Source: a virus (lineage: Duplodnaviria > Caudoviricetes). Taken from it: 55,498 bases of DNA. The notes beneath the pieces were generated by a model. It did not search any database. It was not told the DNA's origin and saw nothing but the letters and a program-made list of their open reading frames with translations. The position numbers and the translations under genes were made by a program. The stretch spans positions 1-55,498 of the IMG/VR virus record IMGVR_UViG_3300025889_000149. One strand, given 5' to 3'. Each line of letters opens with the position of its first letter. Position 1 is the stretch's first letter. Of the stretch, positions 13,314 through 27,932 are shown piece after piece.

Positions 13314-15263
13314 TTATGCCTTTCGGTATGTTCCATCGTTGTTTAATCTTACATGATTAAACCTTTCCCAATTACCAAATAGTTTCTTGGCTTCCATTGG
13401 TTCGTAACCATACTCAACTAACTTTCTCATAAAGTCTGTGAGGTTTACTTTACCATCCTCATTCTCACAATCAGACCATGCTCTCTCTGCTGTCTGTTGT
13501 TTTGTTTCCTTATTAGATGTACCTAGAACTGTTTGAATAGATCCAGATGATATACTTAGATTGAATGAACCATACATTGATTCAATCAACTCTTTAACTC
13601 TCATCACATCAGTAACCTCAACAAAGTCTTTTAACATTAACTTAGCATGTGCATAAGATAATCTAACCAATGCTTCTAATTGTCTAGTACCAATAGGTAA
13701 CTCATCATTCTTTGACTTTGCTCTCATGTCATTATAAATTTTAATTATCTCTGCTTTGACTTCCTCTGTTAGTTTTGGATTCTGTTCTTTTGCTAGAGTC
13801 ATTAATGCTACCAACTCATTCTCTTCTAATGGTATATGTGTAGTCTTTGATACATCATCTTCAAATGAATTAATAATATGACTAGCCTTTAACATATCCT
13901 CTGTCATATTTACAGTATCTTTAATCAACCATATCAAATCAAACCTTGATAACAATGGTGCTGGAATATCTACATTATCTCTCAATGATATATCATTGTC
14001 ATAGAATCCATACTTTGGATTGGCTGATGCAAGTATTGCTGTCTTAGTAGGTAGAGTTAATACAATACCAGCCTTAGCAATACTGACTGTCTGTTGTTCC
14101 ATAGCCTCATGCATGGCACTTCTATCATCCTTATTCATCTTATCGAACTCATCAATAAATGCAAAGCCACCATTACATAATGGTAACACACCAGCTTGGG
14201 CTACAAACCTATCATTAATCTTAACAATAGCGATAGTGAGTCCAGCAGAACTTGTACCTCTTCCAGATGTGTAAATAGATTTATGCGTGATACTATTTGC
14301 ATACTTTAACAACTCAGACTTAGCCATAGATGGATCTCCTACTAGAAAAATGTTTATGTCTGACCTCTTAGTTCCCTTTACACCACCTACTAATTGCAGT
14401 AGTATAGATAACTTTATGTCTTTCATACCATATATTCTAGGTGCAAAACTACTAACAATCTTCTCAGTATATCCATTTTCTTGAGCCATCTCTCTAAACT
14501 TTTTTTCTTGCTCTACTGTTGGTCTCAAATCTTCCTCTTCCTCTAGGTTATCAAGTGCAAGTATGTCAATGTATACATCATTCTCATTCTCTTTCATGTC
14601 AATAATAGACCTGAAGATACCAGTGATTCTTTTCTTCTGACCAGTAAAAGAAGTAGATACATCATTACCATATACCTTACCTACAAATGTAACTGGAGAA
14701 CTGTGAACAGCATCCTCTAATTGTTCTTGTAATAACAATGTCTGAACATCATCAGTAACAACACTGTTACTCTGCATAATCATCTTACATCTCTTACATG
14801 ATGGGTTAGGACATGTAGGCTGTTGTATTTTCTTTTCAAAGTCACACTTAACATCTTCTTGATTAAAACATTGTGGACATACAGCAGTGCCTTGTTTCAC
14901 ATAAGTCTTTGGTGCATCAGTTGCAGATATGATACAGTCAAATGTAATAACTGTATTCTCAAAGTGAGCACCTATATCATGCATAGATATTGGCTCTCTA
15001 CCAACAAGATTAATCTGTAAATCTGCAAATGTATTTGGCACATCAATATCATCATACACTTCTTCTAAAATACCATAAATAACATGTCTTAATCTTTCCT
15101 TAAAATCTACTGGACTCAAACCAAATACCATAGAAAAATCCTCACTCTCTACATCAATATTATATACACTGTTTGGTTTTAATGCAGAAATAACCTTAGA
15201 ATATTGTGGCTTGTTTAATATCTCTCTAATCTTATCACGCATGGCAGACTCTGTGTAACTCAT
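13314..15263 (-). CDS. mcm: MCM replicative helicase
   Basis: Zn finger CPQC...C..C, GDPSMAKS, SAGLT, FIDEFDKM, HEAMEQQTVSIAKAG, LSRFDL, RQLEALVRL. Confidence 0.95.
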   Translation of the reverse strand: MSYTESAMRDKIREILNKPQYSKVISALKPNSVYNIDVESEDFSMVFGLSPVDFKERLRHVIYGILEEVYDDIDVPNTFADLQINLVGREPISMHDIGAHFENTVITFDCIISATDAPKTYVKQGTAVCPQCFNQEDVKCDFEKKIQQPTCPNPSCKRCKMIMQSNSVVTDDVQTLLLQEQLEDAVHSSPVTFVGKVYGNDVSTSFTGQKKRITGIFRSIIDMKENENDVYIDILALDNLEEEEDLRPTVEQEKKFREMAQENGYTEKIVSSFAPRIYGMKDIKLSILLQLVGGVKGTKRSDINIFLVGDPSMAKSELLKYANSITHKSIYTSGRGTSSAGLTIAIVKINDRFVAQAGVLPLCNGGFAFIDEFDKMNKDDRSAMHEAMEQQTVSIAKAGIVLTLPTKTAILASANPKYGFYDNDISLRDNVDIPAPLLSRFDLIWLIKDTVNMTEDMLKASHIINSFEDDVSKTTHIPLEENELVALMTLAKEQNPKLTEEVKAEIIKIYNDMRAKSKNDELPIGTRQLEALVRLSYAHAKLMLKDFVEVTDVMRVKELIESMYGSFNLSISSGSIQTVLGTSNKETKQQTAERAWSDCENEDGKVNLTDFMRKLVEYGYEPMEAKKLFGNWERFNHVRLNNDGTYRKA

Positions 15264-17033: not shown

Positions 17034-17276
17034 ATGGTATTCATTATGGTTACTACCACGTTTAAAGTTATAGGAAATGATAGAGGTAATTACTATCATA
17101 ACAGCACTAGAGTAATAATATACCTACAAAACCATGAATGTATAGAAGATATTTACAAAACTATCACTCATGAAATGATTCATCATTGTATCAACGAAGC
17201 TGGAGAAGAGATGGATGATGATCAAGAAGAGGGATTAATTTTTGCCATTCAATGGGCTGAAGAAACATTAATTTGA
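17034..17276 (+). CDS. Minimal HExxH zincin-like protein
   Basis: RGNY...VIIYL...TITHEMIHH...QEE. Confidence 0.6.
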   Translation: MVFIMVTTTFKVIGNDRGNYYHNSTRVIIYLQNHECIEDIYKTITHEMIHHCINEAGEEMDDDQEEGLIFAIQWAEETLI

Positions 17277-17569
17277 TAATTTTTATCAACATATACCAAC
17301 GATGGCTTATTATCATCTAATAATACAGTATGTTTTTCATATAATTGAGTTTCATATCTATCTAATGCTTCTAAATCTTGTTCAGAGACTTCGAACCAAC
17401 CACCCTCTACAACACTGTTTTTATTTTTCTTTATTGATGGGTATGGAAGTAAACTATGTTCTGTTATCTCGAATCCACTTAGTGTTATCATTGTTAATTT
17501 GGAATCTCTATCTAATACTCTGTATCTGAGAGAATCATTCAATAATGAACCATACACAAATATTCTCAT
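17249..17569 (-). CDS. Gamma-glutamylcyclotransferase (AIG2-like)
   Basis: IFVYGSL, YPSI, VEG, LDRYE...Y. Confidence 0.85.
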   Translation of the reverse strand: MRIFVYGSLLNDSLRYRVLDRDSKLTMITLSGFEITEHSLLPYPSIKKNKNSVVEGGWFEVSEQDLEALDRYETQLYEKHTVLLDDNKPSLVYVDKNYQINVSSAH

Positions 17570-20922: not shown

Positions 20923-21044
20923 CTTGATCTGTTCCTCTGTATATTCATACAGTTATCAATACCATTTAGTTCACACTCAGCACACTTACGTGTTTCTTTG
21001 AAGTAATGCTCGAATGACTGTCGGCATGTTCTACATTTTGACAT
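20919..21044 (-). CDS. 41-aa CxxC-CxxC microprotein (not in ORF track)
   Basis: MSKCRTC...KCAEC; translationally coupled on both sides. Confidence 0.6.
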   Translation of the reverse strand: MSKCRTCRQSFEHYFKETRKCAECELNGIDNCMNIQRNRSR

Positions 21045-21187
21045 CAATCTAAATCGTACCTCATTTCCATATAGCTTGGTTCTGGACTGTATACTTCTGC
21101 ATTAGTTTCCTCTGCATATTCATCGAGCCAGTCCTTAAAAAAACGCACGATGAAATTATTCCAAATGAATAACTTTACATGATTCAT
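21044..21187 (-). CDS. 47-aa microprotein, first gene after promoter B1 (not in ORF track)
   Basis: ATG 22 nt from the TATA of promoter B1; TGATG coupling to next gene. Confidence 0.6.
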   Translation of the reverse strand: MNHVKLFIWNNFIVRFFKDWLDEYAEETNAEVYSPEPSYMEMRYDLD

Positions 21188-21238
21188 ATCTACTAATAGT
21201 CGTTAAGATATATAAACATAGATTTGAAGAAAAATAAT

Positions 21239-21391
21239 AAAGTAGGTAGGCGTGCCTGTTCTTCAATGAGCCAGAGCCCATTCTGAAAACGCCTCGTTCG
21301 TAAGTTATGTATCTCTGTATTTTTTTTTTGGACTCATGCGTATGACCTGAGCCACTCTCGTCTTTTCGAGCACCTTGAGATCCTACTCTAT
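21239..21391 (-). ncRNA. ~150-nt structured ncRNA candidate expressed from promoter B2
   Basis: No ORF; stems AGAGUAGG/CCUACUUU, AUCUC/GAGAU, CUCG/CGAG, GGCUCA/UGAGUC, AGGCGU/ACGCCU, AAUGGGC/GCUCAUU; internal A10; ends in U-rich tract. Confidence 0.65.
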
Positions 21392-21458
21392 ACCATTACT
21401 ATTGTTCTTATGATATTTAAACATATATTTGAAGCTTATGAATGATAGATTCATTCTG

Positions 21459-21574
21459 TTTTTTACTATTTTTTACTCTGATAATCAATGCATATAACGC
21501 TGTTGTAAAAACTATTTTTTTACTATTTTTTTACTATTTTTTTACTTTTTTTTACACTGGTTTTTTATTTTTTT
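21459..21574. repeat. T-rich tract with imperfect tandem TTTTTTACT(A) repeats
   Basis: About six T(5-8)AC(T) units; non-coding; adjoins motif C and repeat A1. Confidence 0.75.
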
Positions 21575-21658
21575 CACTCGTGTACAACTCATGCACACAT
21601 GCATGCGTGACATCGACATTCTTATATACCCCTATCTGTTCCAGTCACGCAAAAAAAA

Positions 21659-22126
21659 TTAAAGCCAGACTGGTATGGATCTGTTAGTCCACTTGTGTAA
21701 GTGCTGTTTGTTTGTACGATAGTAAGTACGATAAGATTCTATAACGTCGTTATTAACTTTACATTCGTCTGGCATTGCACGAGCCCATCGAGTCAAACCA
21801 ATGTCAGGTATGTCAGGCTCAGGTAATGACATGACAACATCATAAGACTTGTGATTGTTGTATTTGTTATATCTATACTTGTATTCATTATTCAATGCAA
21901 TTACCAAGTCACGTAACCAACGCCAGTTAGATAAAGAATCACGTAACCATCTATTACATGGATGGTTAACGTGTGACTTCTTGTATGGTATAACACCGTT
22001 ATAGCCAGTCTCATGTAAACAAGTGCAAAGCATTTGAGCAGACTCTAGTATCATCTTAACCACATGTCTGTCACAATGTGCACGAGCACATGCATCTATG
22101 TCATTATCTAAAACAAAAATGTTCAT
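21659..22126 (-). CDS. Pyrimidine-dimer DNA glycosylase/endonuclease V-like family protein
   Basis: MNIFVLD...HCDRHVVKMILESAQML...NHP...EY..RY...H. Confidence 0.75.
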   Translation of the reverse strand: MNIFVLDNDIDACARAHCDRHVVKMILESAQMLCTCLHETGYNGVIPYKKSHVNHPCNRWLRDSLSNWRWLRDLVIALNNEYKYRYNKYNNHKSYDVVMSLPEPDIPDIGLTRWARAMPDECKVNNDVIESYRTYYRTNKQHLHKWTNRSIPVWL

Positions 22127-22437
22127 AGTAATTGATACGCTTTTCTCATACTTAAGCCTAACTTTGAAGCGTATCTAATATACTCTGATACATTAGAGAG
22201 ACTATGCCCTTGCTCTAACATGAGCCAAATCACACGAGCTAAGTATCTATTGTTGACCCCCGAAGTCTTCAATACTTTCTCAGTGCTTACTCTAGTAAAA
22301 CTAGAGGGAAGAGCAAGGACATGCTCTGAAGTTATGTAACCTAGCACATGAGCCAGAGCTAGGTAAGGACACTGATAACTGTATACTATTGTATCAGCCT
22401 CATCCAGTGCATTAGTGATATATTCTATGTCATTCAT
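22123..22437 (-). CDS. Hypothetical protein
   Basis: Translationally coupled ORF in the B3 operon. Confidence 0.6.
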   Translation of the reverse strand: MNDIEYITNALDEADTIVYSYQCPYLALAHVLGYITSEHVLALPSSFTRVSTEKVLKTSGVNNRYLARVIWLMLEQGHSLSNVSEYIRYASKLGLSMRKAYQLL

Positions 22438-22603
22438 TTTGTCTTTTCTCCATTACTTCTTTAACATGTCGACATGTATGTCTATACTTGTAACCAATAC
22501 AGTCACATGATATAACACCGTTATCAATAGAGACAAAGTGTGAAGACTCTGGATTACTCCTAGAGTCACACTGGAATAGAGTTTCAGATAGTTGCTGTAT
22601 CAT
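22430..22603 (-). CDS. 57-aa SWIM zinc finger protein (not in ORF track)
   Basis: SRS....H.V......SCDC.GY.YR.TCRH; overlaps both neighbours. Confidence 0.7.
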   Translation of the reverse strand: MIQQLSETLFQCDSRSNPESSHFVSIDNGVISCDCIGYKYRHTCRHVKEVMEKRQNE

Positions 22604-22902
22604 ATCCTAAAGTCCTTTTCCTTGTCTTTAAGTATCTTAAACCCAGTGACTTCTTGTGCATCCTCAAGCAAGGCATAGAATACGTCACTGTATTCTCTAA
22701 CTGCCATCTTGTCAAGGATTTTGTATTCCATGATTACAATGCCACACAAGTCAGACCATCCAACCTTTCTATTCATACGTCTTAATATGTCACTGGTACG
22801 TTTGGACAACATGATACCATCCTCAGTTTTTTTGACACGCTTTAATATGCCGATAGAAATCATCTCATCGATGATAACGTGTAGCTTCTTAGAGTCTACC
22901 AT
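22600..22902 (-). CDS. Hypothetical protein
   Basis: Coupled ORF in the B3 operon. Confidence 0.6.
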   Translation of the reverse strand: MVDSKKLHVIIDEMISIGILKRVKKTEDGIMLSKRTSDILRRMNRKVGWSDLCGIVIMEYKILDKMAVREYSDVFYALLEDAQEVTGFKILKDKEKDFRI

Positions 22903-23697
22903 TTATACCATCTCCCAACTTCTATCATCATCACTGTCTAACGTGGATTGACCTTTCTTAAGTTTGTCATAAAACTTAGAATACCATTCCATATCCGATA
23001 GTACCTCGTCTTCTTCGTCTTGATTTTCGATTGTGATTGTGTCTCCCATGTATTCGTCTTCTTGTGACCATGCTGTTTGAAACCACATGTTTTCGTCGTT
23101 TTTTTTGAATGTTTTCTTACTGTCATTACTGGATTTAACAAAGTAGTTATTACTACATTTGTTACCATCGACAGTGACCCATCCATCTCCGAAACGTCTG
23201 ATACCATTGATGTCTAACACTGTTATTTTGTTACGACCCTCAATTAGATTGAGTATGTTCTCTCCATAAGCATCGGCTAATGTAGCCATGCATCTAGAGT
23301 CAGACCAATCAGCACCATCTCCCAACTGAATCTTACCAGCTAATACACCTTGAGCTAACCACTCACGCCAGTCAGACCATGTACCATTATGAAACAGAAC
23401 CTTATCAGTTTCTCCCTCAAGTGTCAATGGCACACCAGTTTCCACTGGAAATGGATGGCATAGTTGATGGTTTACATTACCAACCGATGCGATTCTAAAG
23501 TGGATGATAGCAGGTAGTTTTACAACACCGTTATCAATCAAGGCTTGGATAGTAGTTGCATCTACACCTTTACGATAAGATACAGTACCTTTCTCATTGA
23601 GCCATGCTATACCAGCACCATGAGAGTTTAGAGCCTCAGCATCTCTCATAGTCTCGTATGTTGGGAACTTGTCGTCACAAGAAATGATTACACACAT
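22903..23697 (-). CDS. Class II (Ntn) glutamine amidotransferase
   Basis: N-terminal MC nucleophile, N.HGAG, HFRIASVG, HPF, FHNG, SDS. Confidence 0.85.
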   Translation of the reverse strand: MCVIISCDDKFPTYETMRDAEALNSHGAGIAWLNEKGTVSYRKGVDATTIQALIDNGVVKLPAIIHFRIASVGNVNHQLCHPFPVETGVPLTLEGETDKVLFHNGTWSDWREWLAQGVLAGKIQLGDGADWSDSRCMATLADAYGENILNLIEGRNKITVLDINGIRRFGDGWVTVDGNKCSNNYFVKSSNDSKKTFKKNDENMWFQTAWSQEDEYMGDTITIENQDEEDEVLSDMEWYSKFYDKLKKGQSTLDSDDDRSWEMV

Positions 23698-24875
23698 ATC
23701 TCACAACCCCCCTCGAATATTGGTTCGTCAGCATTGTCAGCTAGGTAAGTGTTTACGATGTCGTAAAACTCATGGATAGCAGACTTTGCTATTCGTGACT
23801 CGTTGAATGTTGGTAAGAGTCTAGACTCTAGTGTCTCATGTAGTTCGTAACAGTAGTTAAGCATACAGTATCTCTCAGAGATTCTACGTGATGCTCTGAA
23901 TTGTGCCATCGCTTTGAATGATTTTCTAGCATAGTATACATTACCAGCTAGTCTATTCCAGAAGCGTGAGCCCTCATTGATATTGTTACGCATAGCCCAC
24001 TCTTGGTAACGCTTTAGATAGTATCTAAAGAATCTAGGAGTCATAAGTTTACCATAGGCTAGCTTGTCTCCGTTTGTGGAAATATGCACATGTATGCCAC
24101 ATGAAGAGTCCATTCTGTCTGGATAATGTTTATCAATCCATTTGTCAATCTCGTCAATAGGTACTGCATCACTGTTAGTTTCTCCAGCAAAGGGATTACA
24201 GTCACAAGCATCCTCGTCACAATGACATGAGATGTCTCTTAAACTGTCATTAACAGAGCCATCCCTATACATGTCGTCAGTCTTGACACGCCATGCACCC
24301 TCAATCTCAACGCCAGTCAATGAGACACCGTTGATACTTTTTGATATAAGACCATCTTTGCTAATCTTATAACCATTCAAGGATTTCTTGACTTTTTTAA
24401 TACCAAAGTGCTTGGAAACAAAGAGCGTGTTGACTCTTATATTAGATGCACCGATGGCACTGGCATACATGTTAATGACACTTGTTAAGTAGTCAACCAA
24501 TGCACGCTGTAATGAATTTCTGTATTTGGTATACATAGTTTCAGGCACGACCATTTTATAGACACAATGCTGAATTCCACTAGCCATTGAGTAGGCACTG
24601 TATGGCAAATTTATTTTACCATCGTTACCATTTCTGAATAAGTTACCCATGTGACAAACATCCTCAACATTGACAGTCATATAACTGTAGGAATCGATAA
24701 GTGCTGTCTGTCTCACTTTCTCGATAACTGGTAGTGCCAATCTAAGGAATTCAGACTTAGTAATTAATTCTAAGCCAGCATTAGTACGCTCAATACTAAC
24801 AGAAAAATCAATGTCTATTGGTAAGACACCGTTAGTAAGACGTGATGCTTGTGTAAGCAATTCGATTTGACTCAT
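23688..24875 (-). CDS. Putative amidoligase (COOH-NH2 ligase, Amidoligase_2-like)
   Basis: GVEIE, DGS, GE, CGIHVH, RY..LN, E.R; start reassigned to ATG 24875, 23 nt from promoter B3. Confidence 0.75.
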   Translation of the reverse strand: MSQIELLTQASRLTNGVLPIDIDFSVSIERTNAGLELITKSEFLRLALPVIEKVRQTALIDSYSYMTVNVEDVCHMGNLFRNGNDGKINLPYSAYSMASGIQHCVYKMVVPETMYTKYRNSLQRALVDYLTSVINMYASAIGASNIRVNTLFVSKHFGIKKVKKSLNGYKISKDGLISKSINGVSLTGVEIEGAWRVKTDDMYRDGSVNDSLRDISCHCDEDACDCNPFAGETNSDAVPIDEIDKWIDKHYPDRMDSSCGIHVHISTNGDKLAYGKLMTPRFFRYYLKRYQEWAMRNNINEGSRFWNRLAGNVYYARKSFKAMAQFRASRRISERYCMLNYCYELHETLESRLLPTFNESRIAKSAIHEFYDIVNTYLADNADEPIFEGGCEICV

Positions 24876-25261
24876 GAAGTAGTAAACGTCGTTATCATAT
24901 ATAAGTCGATATTTGAAGACCATTACACATACCAATTAGCCATACAATAGACAATGATAAATACCCCTATCTCCCCTATAAACCCCTCTAACCTCAATAT
25001 TGTTGTATAAACGTCTCATTCGATTCGTAAGGTAGAGCCTCATACAGCACGCACACGCACATAAAAAGAATTTTTTTTTATTTTCGTAATACAAACGCCA
25101 TCCCATCATAACTCTCGCGTACAACAGTTAATCTTATATACCCCTATTCGTCGTAGACATTCTTATATACCCCTACTTGTTCATAGTTAATCTTATAAAC
25201 CCCTACCTAATTCGACAATCTTATATAGCCCTACTTTGAGAACTATATAAAAAAAATGGGA

Positions 25262-25507
25262 TTAATAATCCCAATCGCCCGATGTACATTCAGGCTCGAT
25301 ACATGATTCTACGCCTGCATAATAGTTACCCTCTATACTTTCATACCATGCATGCTTTAAAGAACCCGAAAACTTTTCAGTCTCTTTAAGCATCATGATA
25401 TGATCTCTAAGGACTAACTTAGCAGAGATCATAGTATCGCACTTTTCGTTATAGTCAGGTAAACAGCCATGAATACCAGCCATAACGTGATAATGAAGCT
25501 TGCTCAT
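25262..25507 (-). CDS. Cassette microprotein (81 aa)
   Basis: Promoter B4 23 nt upstream; oligo(T) and four A repeats downstream. Confidence 0.75.
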   Translation of the reverse strand: MSKLHYHVMAGIHGCLPDYNEKCDTMISAKLVLRDHIMMLKETEKFSGSLKHAWYESIEGNYYAGVESCIEPECTSGDWDY

Positions 25508-25653
25508 TGTAATATATTATTTTTTTTCCTATATAAGACTTTATTTGAAGACCCCCTTAATCGTGTACAGACGTGTACGACCAACAATCTTATATACCCC
25601 TACCTGAATCAACAATCTTATATACCCCTATCTTTCCCCTGTTATAAAAAAAA

Positions 25654-25878
25654 TCAGTAGCTTCTATCGAAGCCATAATAATCGAGAACTCTATTAATCA
25701 TCTTACTAGATGTCATAGATGCTCGATTAATTGATAATACTTTCTTAGAACTTGTATCAAGTTCTAGAATAGTAGTACCATAGTGAATGACTTTAACAAA
25801 TTCGCCAGACTTTAACACAACTGAAGCCTTAACGCATTTGATGTCACTCACTGTAGTGAGGTTATCGAGAACGCTCAT
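25654..25878 (-). CDS. Cassette microprotein (74 aa)
   Basis: Promoter B5; HYGTTI...SMTSSKMINR; oligo(T) and two A repeats downstream. Confidence 0.75.
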   Translation of the reverse strand: MSVLDNLTTVSDIKCVKASVVLKSGEFVKVIHYGTTILELDTSSKKVLSINRASMTSSKMINRVLDYYGFDRSY

Positions 25879-25924
25879 AGTATACTAATAGTTAACATGA
25901 TATATAAACATAGATTTGAAGATT

Positions 25925-25975
25925 TTGGGTACTCAGCCTGACCTATCGAAGTCAGCGATAATGCCTTTTCCCTTT
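25925..25975 (-). ncRNA. ~50-nt structured RNA or leader after promoter B6
   Basis: No ATG; GGG/CCC and GGC/GCU stems around an AAAA/GAGUA internal loop, plus hairpin CUGACUU-CGAU-AGGUCAG. Confidence 0.5.
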
Positions 25976-26075
25976 GATTACTAATAGTTAACATAATATA
26001 TAAGCATTACTTTGAAGCCATGCTACCACCAATCTTATATACCCCTACTATTACCACGCCAAAAAAAAGAGAGGG

Positions 26076-26219
26076 TCACACAAACTCAGGAACGCCCTGT
26101 GTTGTGTTTCTACCCTGCACTCTGGCTTTAGAATGAAACTCTGTATGTCTTTTAACCCTTAAAGAAAAATCGGGGTCTGTCTCATCGAAGTGCATTGAGC
26201 ACAAAGAACAATTAGCCAT
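26076..26219 (-). CDS. 47-aa C2H2-like cassette microprotein (not in ORF track)
   Basis: MANCSLC...RHTEFH; promoter B7 22 nt upstream. Confidence 0.7.
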   Translation of the reverse strand: MANCSLCSMHFDETDPDFSLRVKRHTEFHSKARVQGRNTTQGVPEFV

Positions 26220-26316
26220 AAGTAACATTGGTCGTTATGATATATAAATATAGATATGAAGCCCTATCGTATCATCATTCTTAAATACCCCTACTATCCC
26301 TAATAATAAAAAAGAG

Positions 26317-26547
26317 TTAGAAGATCATCTCTTCATGGACTTGGATTTTAGACTTTGGATTTGTATGCATGATGTAATCGATGTATAGTTGTTTCAAAGT
26401 ATGATAAACCAAATAGATGCTCTTTTGGACATCATCATGGCTCATGTTATCTGTTGGAACAAACTTACCATCATCCATTCTACGACTTATCATCTTTAAC
26501 AAATCGCCACACGAATCTAATTCACGTTTTGAAACGGATGTTTCCAT
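26317..26547 (-). CDS. Cassette microprotein (76 aa)
   Basis: Promoter B8 23 nt upstream; oligo(T) and A repeat downstream. Confidence 0.75.
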   Translation of the reverse strand: METSVSKRELDSCGDLLKMISRRMDDGKFVPTDNMSHDDVQKSIYLVYHTLKQLYIDYIMHTNPKSKIQVHEEMIF

Positions 26548-26666
26548 ACTATACTAATAGTCCTCATACTATATAAACACATATTTGAAGCACTCGCATA
26601 CACATTACTAGCACCAATCTTATATACCCCTACATGTGAGTTACATTATAAAAAAAATGTTGAGGA

Positions 26667-26729
26667 TTACTCCTCACTATATGTGCCATCATAAGGATTT
26701 GGCTCGTAGTCTTCGTACATATCATCCAT
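26667..26729 (-). CDS. 20-aa acidic peptide MDDMYEDYEPNPYDGTYSEE (not in ORF track)
   Basis: ATG 22 nt from promoter B9; stop lies in hairpin TGAGGA-GTAA-TCCTCA followed by T8. Confidence 0.6.
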   Translation of the reverse strand: MDDMYEDYEPNPYDGTYSEE

Positions 26730-26894
26730 AATATACCATAGTCGTTATAATATATAAACACAGATATGAAGCATTTTTTTTATTTACACACACATATCAG
26801 CCCTAACAGTCGCGTACAGACGACAATCTTAAATACCCCTACTTGAATCAACAATCTTAAATACCCCTACTAGTGCTCTTTAATAAAAAAAGGC

Positions 26895-27056
26895 TTAAGA
26901 GTAATAGCCAGTATTAACACCGTCTATCTCTTTCTGTTCCATTCTTTCCATTCGTCTTTCTATTCTAGCGATAAGTATGCAACGCATTTTATCATCCAAG
27001 TCTTTATCAAAACTTATCTGACTTATTCGCTGACAGTCTAATTCGTATTGACTCAT
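26895..27056 (-). CDS. 53-aa cassette microprotein (not in ORF track)
   Basis: MSQYELDCQR...GYYS; promoter B10 22 nt upstream. Confidence 0.7.
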   Translation of the reverse strand: MSQYELDCQRISQISFDKDLDDKMRCILIARIERRMERMEQKEIDGVNTGYYS

Positions 27057-27169
27057 AACTATCTATACTCATCATAATATTTAAACTAATATTTGAAGCC
27101 CTATCAACCCCATCGCTCGTGTACAATCGGCAATCTTATATACCCCTACCTTAGTATATAAAAAAAGGG

Positions 27170-27388
27170 TTAGACGTTTAAAGATCGCCTATAACCCATG
27201 TAGTTTAGGGCTTTGTCCATCTTTTCCCAAAAGTAACCACTGTTCACAAAAGAGTAGTCATTGGGATGGTTTTGCATTTTTGCAATCTCCAAAACACAAC
27301 AAAGTAACTTAGTTGCCACATTGGCATCTAAGTCAGATGACAATCTGTTTGCTTCGGAGATCAGTCCATGAATTGTGTGTTGATCCAT
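27170..27388 (-). CDS. Cassette microprotein (72 aa)
   Basis: Promoter B11 22 nt upstream; oligo(T) and A repeat downstream. Confidence 0.75.
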   Translation of the reverse strand: MDQHTIHGLISEANRLSSDLDANVATKLLCCVLEIAKMQNHPNDYSFVNSGYFWEKMDKALNYMGYRRSLNV

Positions 27389-27539
27389 ACATAAACTGCT
27401 TCGTTATGATTAATAAACATAGATTTGAAGAAACATAGTCATTCTTATATACCCCTACCTAGATTAGTCATTCTTAAATACCCCTACTCTACCAATGCTT
27501 CAAATATCGACTTATATACTATAACGACTAATGATCTTC

Positions 27540-27779
27540 ATGAGCACAGTTAAGATCAATGGAAAGTTGTTCTTCATCAGAGCATCTTTCACAAAGAAAC
27601 ACTACGGTATTCATAACCTCGTCAACTTTTCAATATGGTGGGGTCGTGAAAGAGATCATGAGATCTTCCTTTATGGAAGTACTAAGGTAGAGAACCATAG
27701 AAACTATCCAACACAAGCAAGGAAATATCCAATGATCGGTATTCAATACAACAACCTCAAAAAGAGAAGACTCGATTAA
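27540..27779 (+). CDS. Basic cassette microprotein (79 aa), divergent unit
   Basis: Plus-strand promoter B12 (27498-27518) 22 nt upstream; T10 after stop. Confidence 0.7.
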   Translation: MSTVKINGKLFFIRASFTKKHYGIHNLVNFSIWWGRERDHEIFLYGSTKVENHRNYPTQARKYPMIGIQYNNLKKRRLD

Positions 27780-27932
27780 TTCTTTTTTTTTTAACATTTC
27801 CACAGTGTTAAAAACACGAATATTGCGTGCCAAGTAAACATGGAGAAAAGTCAAAATTTTAAAAAAATCGGGATACAAATCCTGAATACAAATCGGCACA
27901 AGTTTTATAAACAACAGGTGCGTATACAAGGG

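Follow-up and report, generated by a model that had tools for sequence, protein, structure and literature searches.

Pol I is stopped at Sal-box-type terminators by Reb1 or TTF-I, and in yeast Reb1 and Rap1 act as roadblocks for Pol II. At protein-roadblock terminators the protein-binding site follows a T-rich release stretch at a little more than ten bp, and the sites occur in tandem behind the gene, with an extra site just upstream of the next promoter. The Reb1/TTF-I sites of Pol I are orientation-dependent. In passages of a review (PMC7289017) no archaeal case of roadblock termination is given, and DNA-bound proteins are named only as causes of pausing. Excerpts of a report on the halovirus HF2 describe intergenic repeats of 58 bp (class I) and 29 bp (class II), all of which were shown to be promoters, the class II repeats being active in either orientation with roughly half the strength (PMC8707807). 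In the partial text of another study, antisense starts were mapped in SSV1 and polymerase collision was proposed to end transcripts (bioRxiv 10.64898/2026.06.17.732947).

The window analysed here, 55,498 nucleotides in full, is one complete contig of 55.5 kb from an uncultured tailed virus of archaea (MCM, RadA, portal, HK97-type capsid). When it was searched for CTTAWATACCCCTA with up to two mismatches, 16 matches were found, all on the plus strand and all within 21621 to 27486 (0.86 expected; maximum of 3 in 100 shuffles). This element, repeat A, is thus present between 21.6 and 27.5 kb as 15 near-identical copies and one degenerate copy. Alignment of the former (n = 15, leaving out the degenerate copy at 24956) gave the consensus RNCAWT-CTTAWATA-CCCCTAY, in which 15 positions are invariant in all 15 copies and variation takes the form of W at -2, W at +4 (T in 11 copies, A in four) and Y at +14. 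The near-identical copies form nine arrays of 1, 4, 2, 1, 1, 1, 2, 1 and 2 copies with a tandem period of 28 to 30 bp, the period given in the original prediction; they are listed here together with the degenerate copies:

21614 to 21635, plus strand: repeat A, one copy, behind the six-ORF operon 21659 to 24875; 15 nt to the A run
24949 to 24990, plus strand: degenerate A-like copies GATAAATACCCCTAT, then CCCCTATAAACCCCTC, near promoter P 24918; 2 mismatches
25126 to 25234, plus strand: repeat A, four tandem copies, period 29, 30, 28; 14 nt to the A run
25582 to 25631, plus strand: repeat A, two copies, period 28; 14 nt to the A run
26027 to 26048, plus strand: repeat A, one copy; 12 nt to the A run
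26273 to 26294, plus strand: repeat A, one copy; 13 nt to the A run
26612 to 26633, plus strand: repeat A, one copy; 16 nt to the A run
26821 to 26870, plus strand: repeat A, two copies, period 28; 14 nt to the A run
27128 to 27149, plus strand: repeat A, one copy; 10 nt to the A run
27437 to 27487, plus strand: repeat A, two copies, period 29, between divergent promoters P 27430 (minus) and P 27498 (plus); no terminator nearby

Like the repeats of HF2, as the excerpts of that report present them, those of the window occur solely between genes of a tailed virus of archaea, keep their placement among relatives and have AT motifs separated by short C runs (PMC8707807). In the same terms the 40-nt class-P promoter of the window resembles HF2 class I and repeat A resembles class II. 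HF2 repeats, however, head long transcripts and are proven promoters, whereas repeat A heads no ORF, is tandem, stands at a fixed distance from oligo-T and is a putative promoter. Class-P promoters have the leaderless architecture CTTCAAAT-N5-TATA-N21/22-ATG and lie at the following positions:

27389 to 27430, minus strand: class-P promoter
27057 to 27098, minus strand: class-P promoter
26730 to 26771, minus strand: class-P promoter
26548 to 26590, minus strand: class-P promoter
26220 to 26261, minus strand: class-P promoter
25975 to 26017, minus strand: class-P promoter without an ORF (96-bp "RNA cassette", missing in contig L103)
25879 to 25921, minus strand: class-P promoter, no repeat A upstream
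25508 to 25550, minus strand: class-P promoter
24876 to 24918, minus strand: class-P promoter of the operon
21392 to 21434, minus strand: class-P promoter serving a conserved non-coding RNA cassette that reaches to about 21240
21188 to 21229, minus strand: class-P promoter, no repeat A upstream
27498 to 27539, plus strand: class-P promoter of the first rightward gene

The spacing from TATA box to ATG is 21 to 23 nt in 30 of the 31 window matches, and among 81 promoters of the window and its relatives it is always 21 (56), 22 (19) or 23 nt (6). By this grammar of the virus group itself, repeat A is TATA-like, an assignment that sequence comparison supports. Its octamer CTTAWATA occurs in real promoters, 35 of 81 of which begin with C, its sole internal W is the TATA box's own W position, and an A at -3 is found in 15/15 copies versus 73/81 real promoters. 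In common with archaeal BRE/TATA core promoters it has the octamer (T/C)TTAWATA, preceded by an A at the third base and followed by a purine at 21 to 23 nt; unlike them, repeat A heads no gene, carries an atypical C at -4 (13/15 copies versus 2/81 real promoters) and has an invariant CCCCTAY after the TATA box. This flank is outside ordinary promoter grammar, and CCC follows the TATA box in none of the 31 window promoters. No ORF start was found at promoter distance from repeat A in the window, and in relatives such a start was absent on either side for 80 of 92 elements that combine a TATA box with a C-tract (TATA+SCS). Seven TATA+SCS elements of relatives, in at least five genes, do act forward, and AATCTTAAATACCCC (L018) and ATTCTTAAATACCCC (L016), near-identical to repeat A, each drive a leaderless gene whose ATG follows after 21 to 22 nt.

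Eight of the nine arrays are coupled to a plus-strand run of six to eight A, which, read on the minus strand, is the oligo-T tract of the unit before it. The last copy lies 15, 14, 14, 12, 13, 16, 14 and 10 nt from the run, through spacers that have no sequence relation to one another; the distance from array to next promoter P varies from 6 to 207 nt. Between 21000 and 27600 the plus strand has nine runs of at least six A, and eight of them are these terminators:

21651 to 21658, minus strand: oligo-T terminator T8 of the operon
25249 to 25256, minus strand: oligo-T terminator T8 of the 81-aa cassette
25646 to 25653, minus strand: oligo-T terminator T8 of the 74-aa cassette
26061 to 26068, minus strand: oligo-T terminator T8 of the 47-aa cassette
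26308 to 26313, minus strand: oligo-T terminator T6 of the 76-aa cassette
26650 to 26657, minus strand: oligo-T terminator T8 of the 20-aa cassette
26885 to 26891, minus strand: oligo-T terminator T7 of the 53-aa cassette
27160 to 27166, minus strand: oligo-T terminator T7 of the 72-aa cassette, 3 nt past the stop codon

The original prediction had described repeat A as a BRE-like element and TATA box facing the preceding minus-strand unit, 11 to 17 bp from its oligo(T), with the +23 spacing of other promoters setting a start in or next to the A run. The octamer, the A at -3 and the promoter spacings bear this out; the 11 to 17 bp are the 10 to 16 nt found here, counted inclusively, and a start set 22 nt past the octamer falls at -2 to +4 of the run's first A. 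The statement that two RNA cassettes lack repeat A agrees with the promoter copies at 26017 and 21434, for which neither an ATG at the canonical spacing nor a repeat A behind them is present. The proposed tie to eight protein-coding units holds for eight of the nine arrays, but the ninth (27437 to 27487) adjoins no terminator, one unit is a six-ORF operon and another encodes only 20 aa.

Since repeat A fits the group's promoter grammar, the run's first A would be the plus-strand start site, and because the element points back at the terminator in the window virus, its products, if it fires, would be antisense RNAs from the A run. It is conceivable, though we think it rather unlikely, that repeat A is a working promoter from which rightward antisense transcription begins at that A, the RNAs or the convergent polymerases shutting off the early cassettes. 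The canonical octamer, the A at -3 and the forward-acting elements of relatives favour such a role, as does the A run, which begins 17 to 23 nt (mode 21) after the octamer, the real promoters having 21 to 23 nt. The HF2 repeats (PMC8707807, excerpts) point the same way, as does SSV1, in the partial text also an archaeal virus with antisense starts and convergent transcription, although its sites are single and dissimilar and no repeated element stands behind every early unit (bioRxiv 10.64898/2026.06.17.732947). On the other hand, the C at -4 is rare in real promoters, and in tandem arrays the start predicted from each copy would hit the TATA box of the next. Terminators for antisense RNAs would also be irregular, as plus-strand runs of at least six T follow only some cassettes and T5+ runs on that strand are not clearly depleted after allowing for composition.

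Relatives bear on the same question. They keep the order oligo-T, about 17 bp, TATA/C-tract element, YGTACRCG box and early promoter, and in some the TATA box of the real promoter lies 27 to 29 nt behind the element. In G002, whose MCM is 67% identical, the element is inverted with respect to the window, all 11 copies (within 1.1 kb) being co-directional with the genes; three of three arrays begin 12 to 14 nt after a T5 to T8 run and are followed by TTGTACRCG and a P-like promoter, and one array in the divergent region has no terminator. In L149 one intergenic region has a co-directional element with its TATA box 15 nt after a T6 run, and the next has an inverted one 23 nt after a T8 run. In L098 and L007 the element is oriented as in the window; the intact copies of L098 stop 41 nt short of the run, the distance being 13 nt only with a degenerate third copy included, and L007 has one A-like copy without a clear T run before it. 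In distant relatives the co-directional form, 16 to 18 nt behind the T run, is the common one. Of the 94 TATA+SCS elements found in related loci, 18 are preceded within 60 nt by a run of at least six T, which lies at 16 to 18 nt in 12 of these 18; for 416 TATA boxes without SCS, 3 of 45 fall in the 15 to 19 nt bin (Fisher p = 2e-6, uncorrected for relatedness, with about 8 contexts judged independent). What is conserved is that the element stands next to the terminator, and not that it faces it. An antisense-firing switch would not survive such inversion, and of the antisense promoters proposed at the outset what stands is that they are possible in the window virus; their convergence is not conserved.

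The YGTACRCG box has its counterpart in the window as CGYGTACR, of which there are seven copies, all on the plus strand, six in the repeat A region; it is conserved in G002, L098, L117 and L149 and lies at a fixed 9 nt from repeat A in four arrays:

27118 to 27125, plus strand: CGYGTACR box, 9 nt from the TATA octamer of repeat A, between repeat A and the next P
26811 to 26818, plus strand: CGYGTACR box, 9 nt from repeat A
25562 to 25579, plus strand: two CGYGTACR boxes, the nearer one 9 nt from repeat A
25116 to 25123, plus strand: CGYGTACR box, 9 nt from repeat A
21579 to 21586, plus strand: CGYGTACR box, 34 nt from repeat A

This arrangement would suit an operator, at which a sequence-specific viral or host regulator other than TBP/TFB would act jointly with the CGYGTACR box to switch the neighbouring P on or off, the likeness to a TATA box being incidental. 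Each of the nine arrays is upstream of a different P, including the first P, which has no preceding terminator; the CCCCTAY flank is invariant although foreign to ordinary promoter grammar; and YTTAWATACCCC is unused by the putative host family (4 matches versus 16 for the reversed control in 26 genomes). We nevertheless regard an operator as improbable, since the distance to P varies whereas that to the T run is fixed, the single variable core base is exactly the W of the TATA box, and the BRE side differs between viruses while TATA box and CCC are kept. In addition, no cassette protein has a recognisable DNA-binding domain, and a 100-aa protein gave only weak winged-helix leads (TM 0.32 to 0.44).

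Iterons of a replication origin, also suggested originally, or homology patches for cassette exchange are very unlikely. The largest cluster, four copies and degenerate ones, does flank an AT-rich T9 tract before the operon, with a similar cluster in G002; contigs of run X1 have joints at A/P borders (25630>27498 and 26262>26612); and contig L103, 99.9% identical, lacks 96 bp between two P copies. But the copies are scattered over nine intergenic regions with no single locus, the sides of the X1 joints are only 20 to 24 letters and may come from repeats, and no integrase was found among the ORFs scanned. Iterons are disfavoured because a separate conserved non-coding element, which we take to be ORB-like, lies at 27793 to 27894 (AACATTTCCACA and two ATACAAATC), common to L098, G002 and L149. 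Titration of host TBP/TFB off host promoters during genome replication would profit from sixteen consensus-strength sites per genome packed at 28 to 30 bp and from the rarity of the repeat A word in genomes of the putative host family; still, a sponge needs neither a fixed terminator distance nor one array per promoter, and G002 manages with 11 copies in 1.1 kb, and it seems the least probable role of all.

Repeat A is best explained as a TATA box that stands on its own between a BRE-like flank and an invariant C-tract, and host TBP/TFB most likely bind it, as the virus encodes neither (no TBP or TFIIB domain was found in the virus record). Among the four ideas of the original prediction, the best fit is a bound roadblock; we favour, tentatively and from reading of the DNA, a TBP/TFB pad that serves as roadblock or boundary at terminators. 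Repeat A would form the far end of the control sequences upstream of every class-P early promoter and would be kept at about 13 bp (TATA core 17 to 23 bp) past the oligo-T terminator of the preceding unit. The front edge of a polymerase entering the T-tract would hit the bound pad with the active site still on the weak oligo-U hybrid, and the polymerase is proposed to be held there and released. Tandem copies at 28 to 30 bp, each about one TBP/TFB footprint, would tighten the block, which would not depend on the direction of the element.

The likeness to Reb1/TTF-I-type terminators lies in a T-rich stretch followed by a site, in tandem repeats and in a site near the next promoter; the polymerase system and factors differ from those of Reb1/TTF-I and Reb1/Rap1, and A-type elements occur in both orientations. 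In favour of the pad are the tight coupling (8/8 terminator-adjacent arrays at 10 to 16 nt), the slot kept whatever the orientation, the specificity of the coupling for the TATA+SCS class, the TBP/TFB-type recognition word, the fact that most elements are not gene promoters, and the tandem period, which equals the octamer plus 21 nt. Against it, Pol I roadblock terminators are orientation-dependent, arrays of four copies (4+3 in G002) seem more than a block needs, and the fit of the A run to a canonical start is predicted more sharply by antisense promoters. As CCCCTAY is outside the promoter grammar, a different sequence-specific protein could bind repeat A. The ninth array of the window and the divergent-region array of G002 have no terminator to serve, so the element must also act for the promoter side, where the pad may keep initiation factors beside promoter P. 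The pad would insulate the close-packed early units from read-through. If this is true, transcription factors land on repeat A and thereby set neighbouring genes off from one another.

Repeat A, a promoter-like element with the consensus RNCAWT-CTTAWATA-CCCCTAY (15 aligned copies, 15 positions invariant), lies behind the oligo-T terminators of the minus-strand early units of this virus. The original observation was confirmed: its 16 core matches (0.86 expected) are all on the plus strand between 21621 and 27486; every one is intergenic, and none was found elsewhere in the genome. The features concerned are:

about 27430 down to about 12146, leftward: leftward gene module
13314-15263, minus strand: MCM helicase gene (Pfam MCM, E = 2e-76)
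17249-17569: GGACT-family ORF
21188-27539: class-P promoters, the conserved early promoters heading each cassette (11 good leftward, 1 weak internal and 1 rightward; 13 sites)
21240-21434, minus strand: ORF-less cassette of the P promoter at 21434
21455-21575, plus strand: eight T6-T8 tracts at a spacing of about 10-11 bp, between the A copy at 21621 and the P promoter at 21434
21621-27486, plus strand: repeat A
22903-24875, minus strand: first two ORFs of the operon (264-aa and 395-aa proteins)
25922-26017: 96-bp "RNA cassette" between two P copies
from 27498, rightward: rightward gene module
27793-27894: non-coding element directly right of the first rightward gene and ahead of a weakly GINS-like ORF

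The copies are grouped into nine arrays, in which tandem copies recur every 28-30 bp. The coupling to terminators held throughout, with all eight adjoining arrays ending 10-16 nt from the A run that represents the oligo-T of the preceding minus-strand unit, and the spacers between A and oligo-T have no common sequence. Nine runs of at least six A occur on the plus strand of 21000-27600, eight of which are oligo-T sites flanking A arrays. Of the units that end at these sites, seven consist of a single small ORF (20-81 aa) and one is an operon of six ORFs. The two "RNA cassettes" were said to lack A, and indeed the two P copies without an ORF have no A behind either of them. In the direction of the genes, the intergenic unit thus reads stop codon, oligo-T, about 13 nt, one to four copies of A, a CGYGTACR box, a spacer of 6-207 nt and P. 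Seven copies of the box occur in the window, every one on the plus strand and six in the A region, often between A and P; in four arrays it stands exactly 9 nt from the TATA octamer of A. Every array is also upstream of a different class-P promoter, including the one at 27430, which has no terminator before it, and this description fits the layout as well as that of an array behind a terminator; P-like sites without an array are found at 25921, 21229 and, in a weak form, 22169. T-runs on the plus strand inside the cassettes numbered one in 1.3 kb versus 3.07 per kb elsewhere, a difference that is not significant when adjusted for composition. The layout of A is a real and unusually regular regulatory arrangement.

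The virus is a tailed archaeal virus, recorded as one contig of 55,498 bases (estimated to be 89% complete) that is the entire record for the genome. Besides the MCM helicase it encodes a CobS-like AAA protein beside a VWA protein, a portal protein, an HK97-type capsid protein whose closest database relatives are from haloarchaeal and methanogen tailed viruses (23-27% identity), and a RadA-like ORF with 69% identity to an ORF of one relative. No tRNA genes were found in the window, no TBP or TFIIB domain in the virus record, no near matches to the window in the phage collection and no IMG/VR relatives of a 415-aa protein. Its leaderless genes follow a promoter grammar in which 21-23 nt separate (T/C)TTAWAT(A/T) from the ATG in 30 of 31 window matches. 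Across 81 promoters from the window and related loci, the spacing from TATA to ATG was 21 (n=56), 22 (n=19) or 23 (n=6), and the upstream flank carried A at -3 in 73 promoters and W (A or T) at -4 in 77.

Read by this grammar, A faces back into the minus-strand genes as the original prediction had it, with a usable octamer and A at -3 in 15/15 copies. The octamer CTTAWATA, present in all 15, matches the consensus of the real promoters of the group, (T/C)TTAWATA, which are C-initial in 35/81. The only variable core base of A is the W of the TATA box (T in 11 and A in 4 copies vs T in 46 and A in 35 promoters). Two features are atypical. The BRE-like flank, which in the promoters of this group has A at -3 and W at -4 and -5, has C at -4 in 13/15 copies vs 2/81 real promoters; and CCCCTAY is invariant in A, CCC after the TATA box being found in none of the 31 window promoters. 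A might also be the site of a dedicated regulator, a reading that we consider rather improbable.

The A run begins 17-23 nt (mode 21) after the octamer and no ORF follows; a start at the canonical distance would land at -2 to +4 of its first A, as had been anticipated, and the starts of tandem copies would fall in the next copy. This very exact fit favours A being an antisense promoter, as do repeats of similar make-up in halovirus HF2, which are proven promoters, some of them bidirectional (PMC8707807). For these two reasons we retain the antisense promoter as a possible, if doubtful, function of A. Among 92 distinct elements in relatives in which a TATA box is followed by a G/C triplet, seven had a forward ATG (ORF of at least 50 aa) at 20-22 nt; these span at least five different genes and include near-identical words in two related loci, L018 (AATCTTAAATACCCC) and L016, suggesting that such boxes can be true promoters in relatives. 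A reverse-direction ATG at 20-21 nt was seen in 5/92, all of one homologous gene. The remaining 80/92 had no ORF start in either direction, and thus most elements of the class are free-standing, as A is. A reading of A as a sense promoter with a G-rich BRE was raised by GGGGTATWTAAA 20-21 nt before an ATG in five loci, and was set aside, since all five represent one homologous gene that has no homologue in the window; what is retained of it is that the element may work in both directions.

Comparison with related viruses bears on the direction of A. In L007, a locus with a 69% identical MCM, two A-like copies have the window orientation, one of them following the homologue of a 155-aa window gene. 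L098, from a different virus with no blastn alignment to the window, shares the layout of the window, including the box and the A copies; the upstream word of its P promoters is a different one. In G002, a 58-kb relative (93% complete, MCM 67%), the slot of A is occupied by 11 copies of AACCTTTATATACC(C/G)T in a 1.1-kb stretch; its three arrays all start 12-14 nt after a T5-T8 run, and downstream of each come TTGTACRCG and a P-like promoter. The G002 copies are co-directional with the genes and hence inverted relative to the window, and the single leftward P of G002 has a degenerate upstream copy that likewise points toward P. In L149, from a relative sharing the non-coding element at 27793, two successive intergenic regions carry the element in opposite orientations, one co-directional and one inverted, in each case flanked by a T-run and a YGTACGCG box. 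The convergent direction claimed for A is therefore true for the window virus and is not conserved; the sequence and relative place of A are kept in these four viruses and its orientation is not. That the slot keeps the element inverted in relatives also speaks against the antisense promoter.

Coupling to T-runs was seen in the wider class as well. Eighteen of 94 TATA boxes with the G/C triplet (TATA+SCS) in related loci had a T run of at least 6 within 60 nt upstream, ending 16-18 nt before the octamer in 12, vs 3/45 in the 15-19 nt bin for TATA boxes without the G/C triplet (n=416; Fisher p = 2e-6, kinship ignored, with about 8 independent contexts by inspection). Since the slot is the same in either orientation and the T-run coupling is shared, the conserved feature is a TATA/C-tract element about 17 bp from an oligo-T.

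Database scans recovered few further cases. An exact 16-mer of A occurred in six IMG/VR contigs, the sole relative being L001, the contig of L007; the other five were judged chance-level single matches. The tandem-A pattern had no match in IMG/VR and seven in metagenome contigs, three from the same virus (99.7-99.9% identity), one from a true relative (L098) and three unrelated. Composite pattern scans gave relevant loci in 1/16 (L149) and 4/17 (all of the G002 population); the others were matches in coding sequence of unrelated phages. Four IMG/VR archaeal-virus-like contigs of 40-43% GC (L110, L112, L119 and L120) contain many CCTTTATATACCCCC(T)TCTA elements, arranged in tandem triplets and with both orientations present in a single region, and the TATA/C-tract class therefore extends beyond the close relatives of the window. 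Contigs from a public run (X1, library type and strand not given) that lie on the window are from related strains, 90-99% alike. Some join 25630/27498 and 26262/26612, thereby bridging whole cassettes whose borders lie at A or P repeats, which hints that cassette content differs between strains; as the flanks are only 20-24 letters, these joints may be assembly effects at repeats.

The reading that we tentatively prefer, at rather less than even confidence, is that A is a pad for protein (TBP/TFB) at a set distance from the T-tract, acting as a roadblock or boundary; past the position of the element, every step is one that we infer. An early-gene switch that fires antisense would not tolerate inversion, because the inverted element would be a second sense promoter, whereas a role that needs just a bound protein at a fixed distance from the T-tract is compatible with it. 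The spacing fits a roadblock: the front of RNA polymerase reaches roughly 15-20 bp beyond the active site, and a factor edge about 8-17 bp past the last T would halt the polymerase while it is still on the oligo-U hybrid. One tandem period of A, 28-30 bp, is about the size of a TBP/TFB footprint, so the arrays could be close-packed pads. That the arrays might instead be a sponge, with titration as their function, seems to us scarcely probable. The leftward module starts at about 27430 and the rightward at 27498, and approximately 27440-27490 is therefore the one divergent control region. Since arrays lie in the divergent regions of both the window and G002, the element must have a role on the promoter side as well, perhaps by keeping factors close to P or by shielding it. 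In a combined form, which we think unlikely, a group of uncultured archaeal tailed viruses would use close-packed TBP/TFB pads as roadblocks in either orientation, and in this virus the pads would also fire antisense RNAs. The pad, a TATA box and C-tract about 17 bp past the oligo-T, would complete termination and insulate neighbours, and the oligo-A 5' ends of the antisense RNAs would pair with the U-tails of early mRNAs.

That the copies are iterons, as had also been proposed, or cassette-exchange sites we regard as very unlikely. Replication iterons would cluster in a single place about an AT-rich region for unwinding; A forms nine separate intergenic arrays spread over 6 kb, and a distinct ORB-like element is found elsewhere, at 27793. 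The latter, common to L098, G002 and L149, consists of AACATTTCCACAG..., GTCAA and then two ATACAAATC words, which we take to resemble the archaeal origin recognition box, so that it may mark a replication origin.

Class P is a strikingly conserved 40-nt promoter, CTTCAAAT-N5-TATA-N21/22-ATG, more fully CTTCAAAT-N5-TATA-(T)ATAACGACTATTAGTA-ATG, with conservation reaching well past BRE and TATA and including the segment from the TATA box to the start. In relatives its upstream word is swapped and the layout kept (GATAATCAAACC in G002, GAGCTGATAA in L098, ATTAATCAAAG in L149). In the ORF-less cassette of P 21434, a 3' segment of about 75 nt (...GAACGAGGCGTTT.CAG...GGCACGCCTACC and a T-run) is shared with G002 and has no Rfam match, and since it is kept in G002 the cassette is probably a real small RNA; behind the G002 counterpart come T6, 12 nt and then four A-like copies, and the window differs. 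The T tracts at 21455-21575 have units resembling TTTTTTTACTA, and phased T tracts usually give rise to curved DNA. The 96-bp "RNA cassette", absent in L103, a 99.9%-identical metagenome contig, is a polymorphic tandem duplication in which P is accompanied by about 55 nt of hairpin-containing sequence.

Pfam and PHROGs searches with the cassette proteins gave nothing better than E = 0.015, Rfam over 20.5-28.5 kb gave no relevant match, and a 100-aa protein gave winged-helix leads in the ESM Atlas, all sub-threshold. In the operon, the 264-aa protein starts MC... and has weak class-II glutamine amidotransferase matches, and the 395-aa protein has an HVH motif, presumably that of amidoligases; the two look like a peptide-modifying pair. 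Downstream of them were found a SWIM zinc-finger ORF and a match to phrog_624 "DNA binding protein" (E = 4e-52), as well as the GGACT-family ORF.

On the host side, the closest MCM match in the cellular collection (52-53%) was on a contig assigned to the bin of a Candidatus Nitrosopelagicus MAG, which is only a hint of the host. In 26 genomes from the family of that MAG, the word YTTAWATACCCC was matched 4 times and its reversed control 16 times (binomial p = 0.012); the MAG itself had no match, and the word is no host promoter form in the genomes searched. Its rarity may mean that a very strong factor site is avoided, or simply that the host is the wrong one. From 275 kb of 20 genomes of the family just 10 TATA-to-ATG cases were obtained, too few to give a host promoter grammar, and a Nitrosopelagicus-type host is therefore a candidate only.

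The closest described case to A is that of the HF2 intergenic repeats, which carry promoters (PMC8707807). Like them, A is intergenic only and has a place conserved in related viruses; unlike them, it heads no gene, forms tandem arrays and is tied to terminators. In logic, its layout resembles eukaryotic Pol I and Pol II termination at protein roadblocks, with a T-rich stretch at a fixed 10-20 bp before the site (10-16 nt in 8/8 arrays, 12-14 nt in 3/3 of G002). TTF-I/Reb1 sites are orientation-dependent and the slot of A holds both orientations, so the analogy is one of mechanism and not of membership. The accessible part of a review of archaeal transcription (PMC7289017) mentions no TBP/TFB roadblock terminator, and none of the papers listed for the A motif strings was relevant.

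How archaea terminate cleanly at short oligo-T tracts, and how tightly packed units escape mutual interference, are only partly understood. Eight near-identical promoter-gene-terminator units, each followed at a constant distance by one and the same 20-nt element, offer a compact natural test object, and relatives with the inverted element in the same place allow a sharp test in any archaeal in vitro system. If true, the combined reading would give the first factor-roadblock terminator/insulator module described in Archaea, made of general initiation factors. A TBP/TFB-based boundary would give the general factors a new role and supply archaeal genetics with a ready-made insulator part, and if A is only a promoter, the HF2 finding of promoter-bearing intergenic repeats would be extended to marine archaeal viruses.
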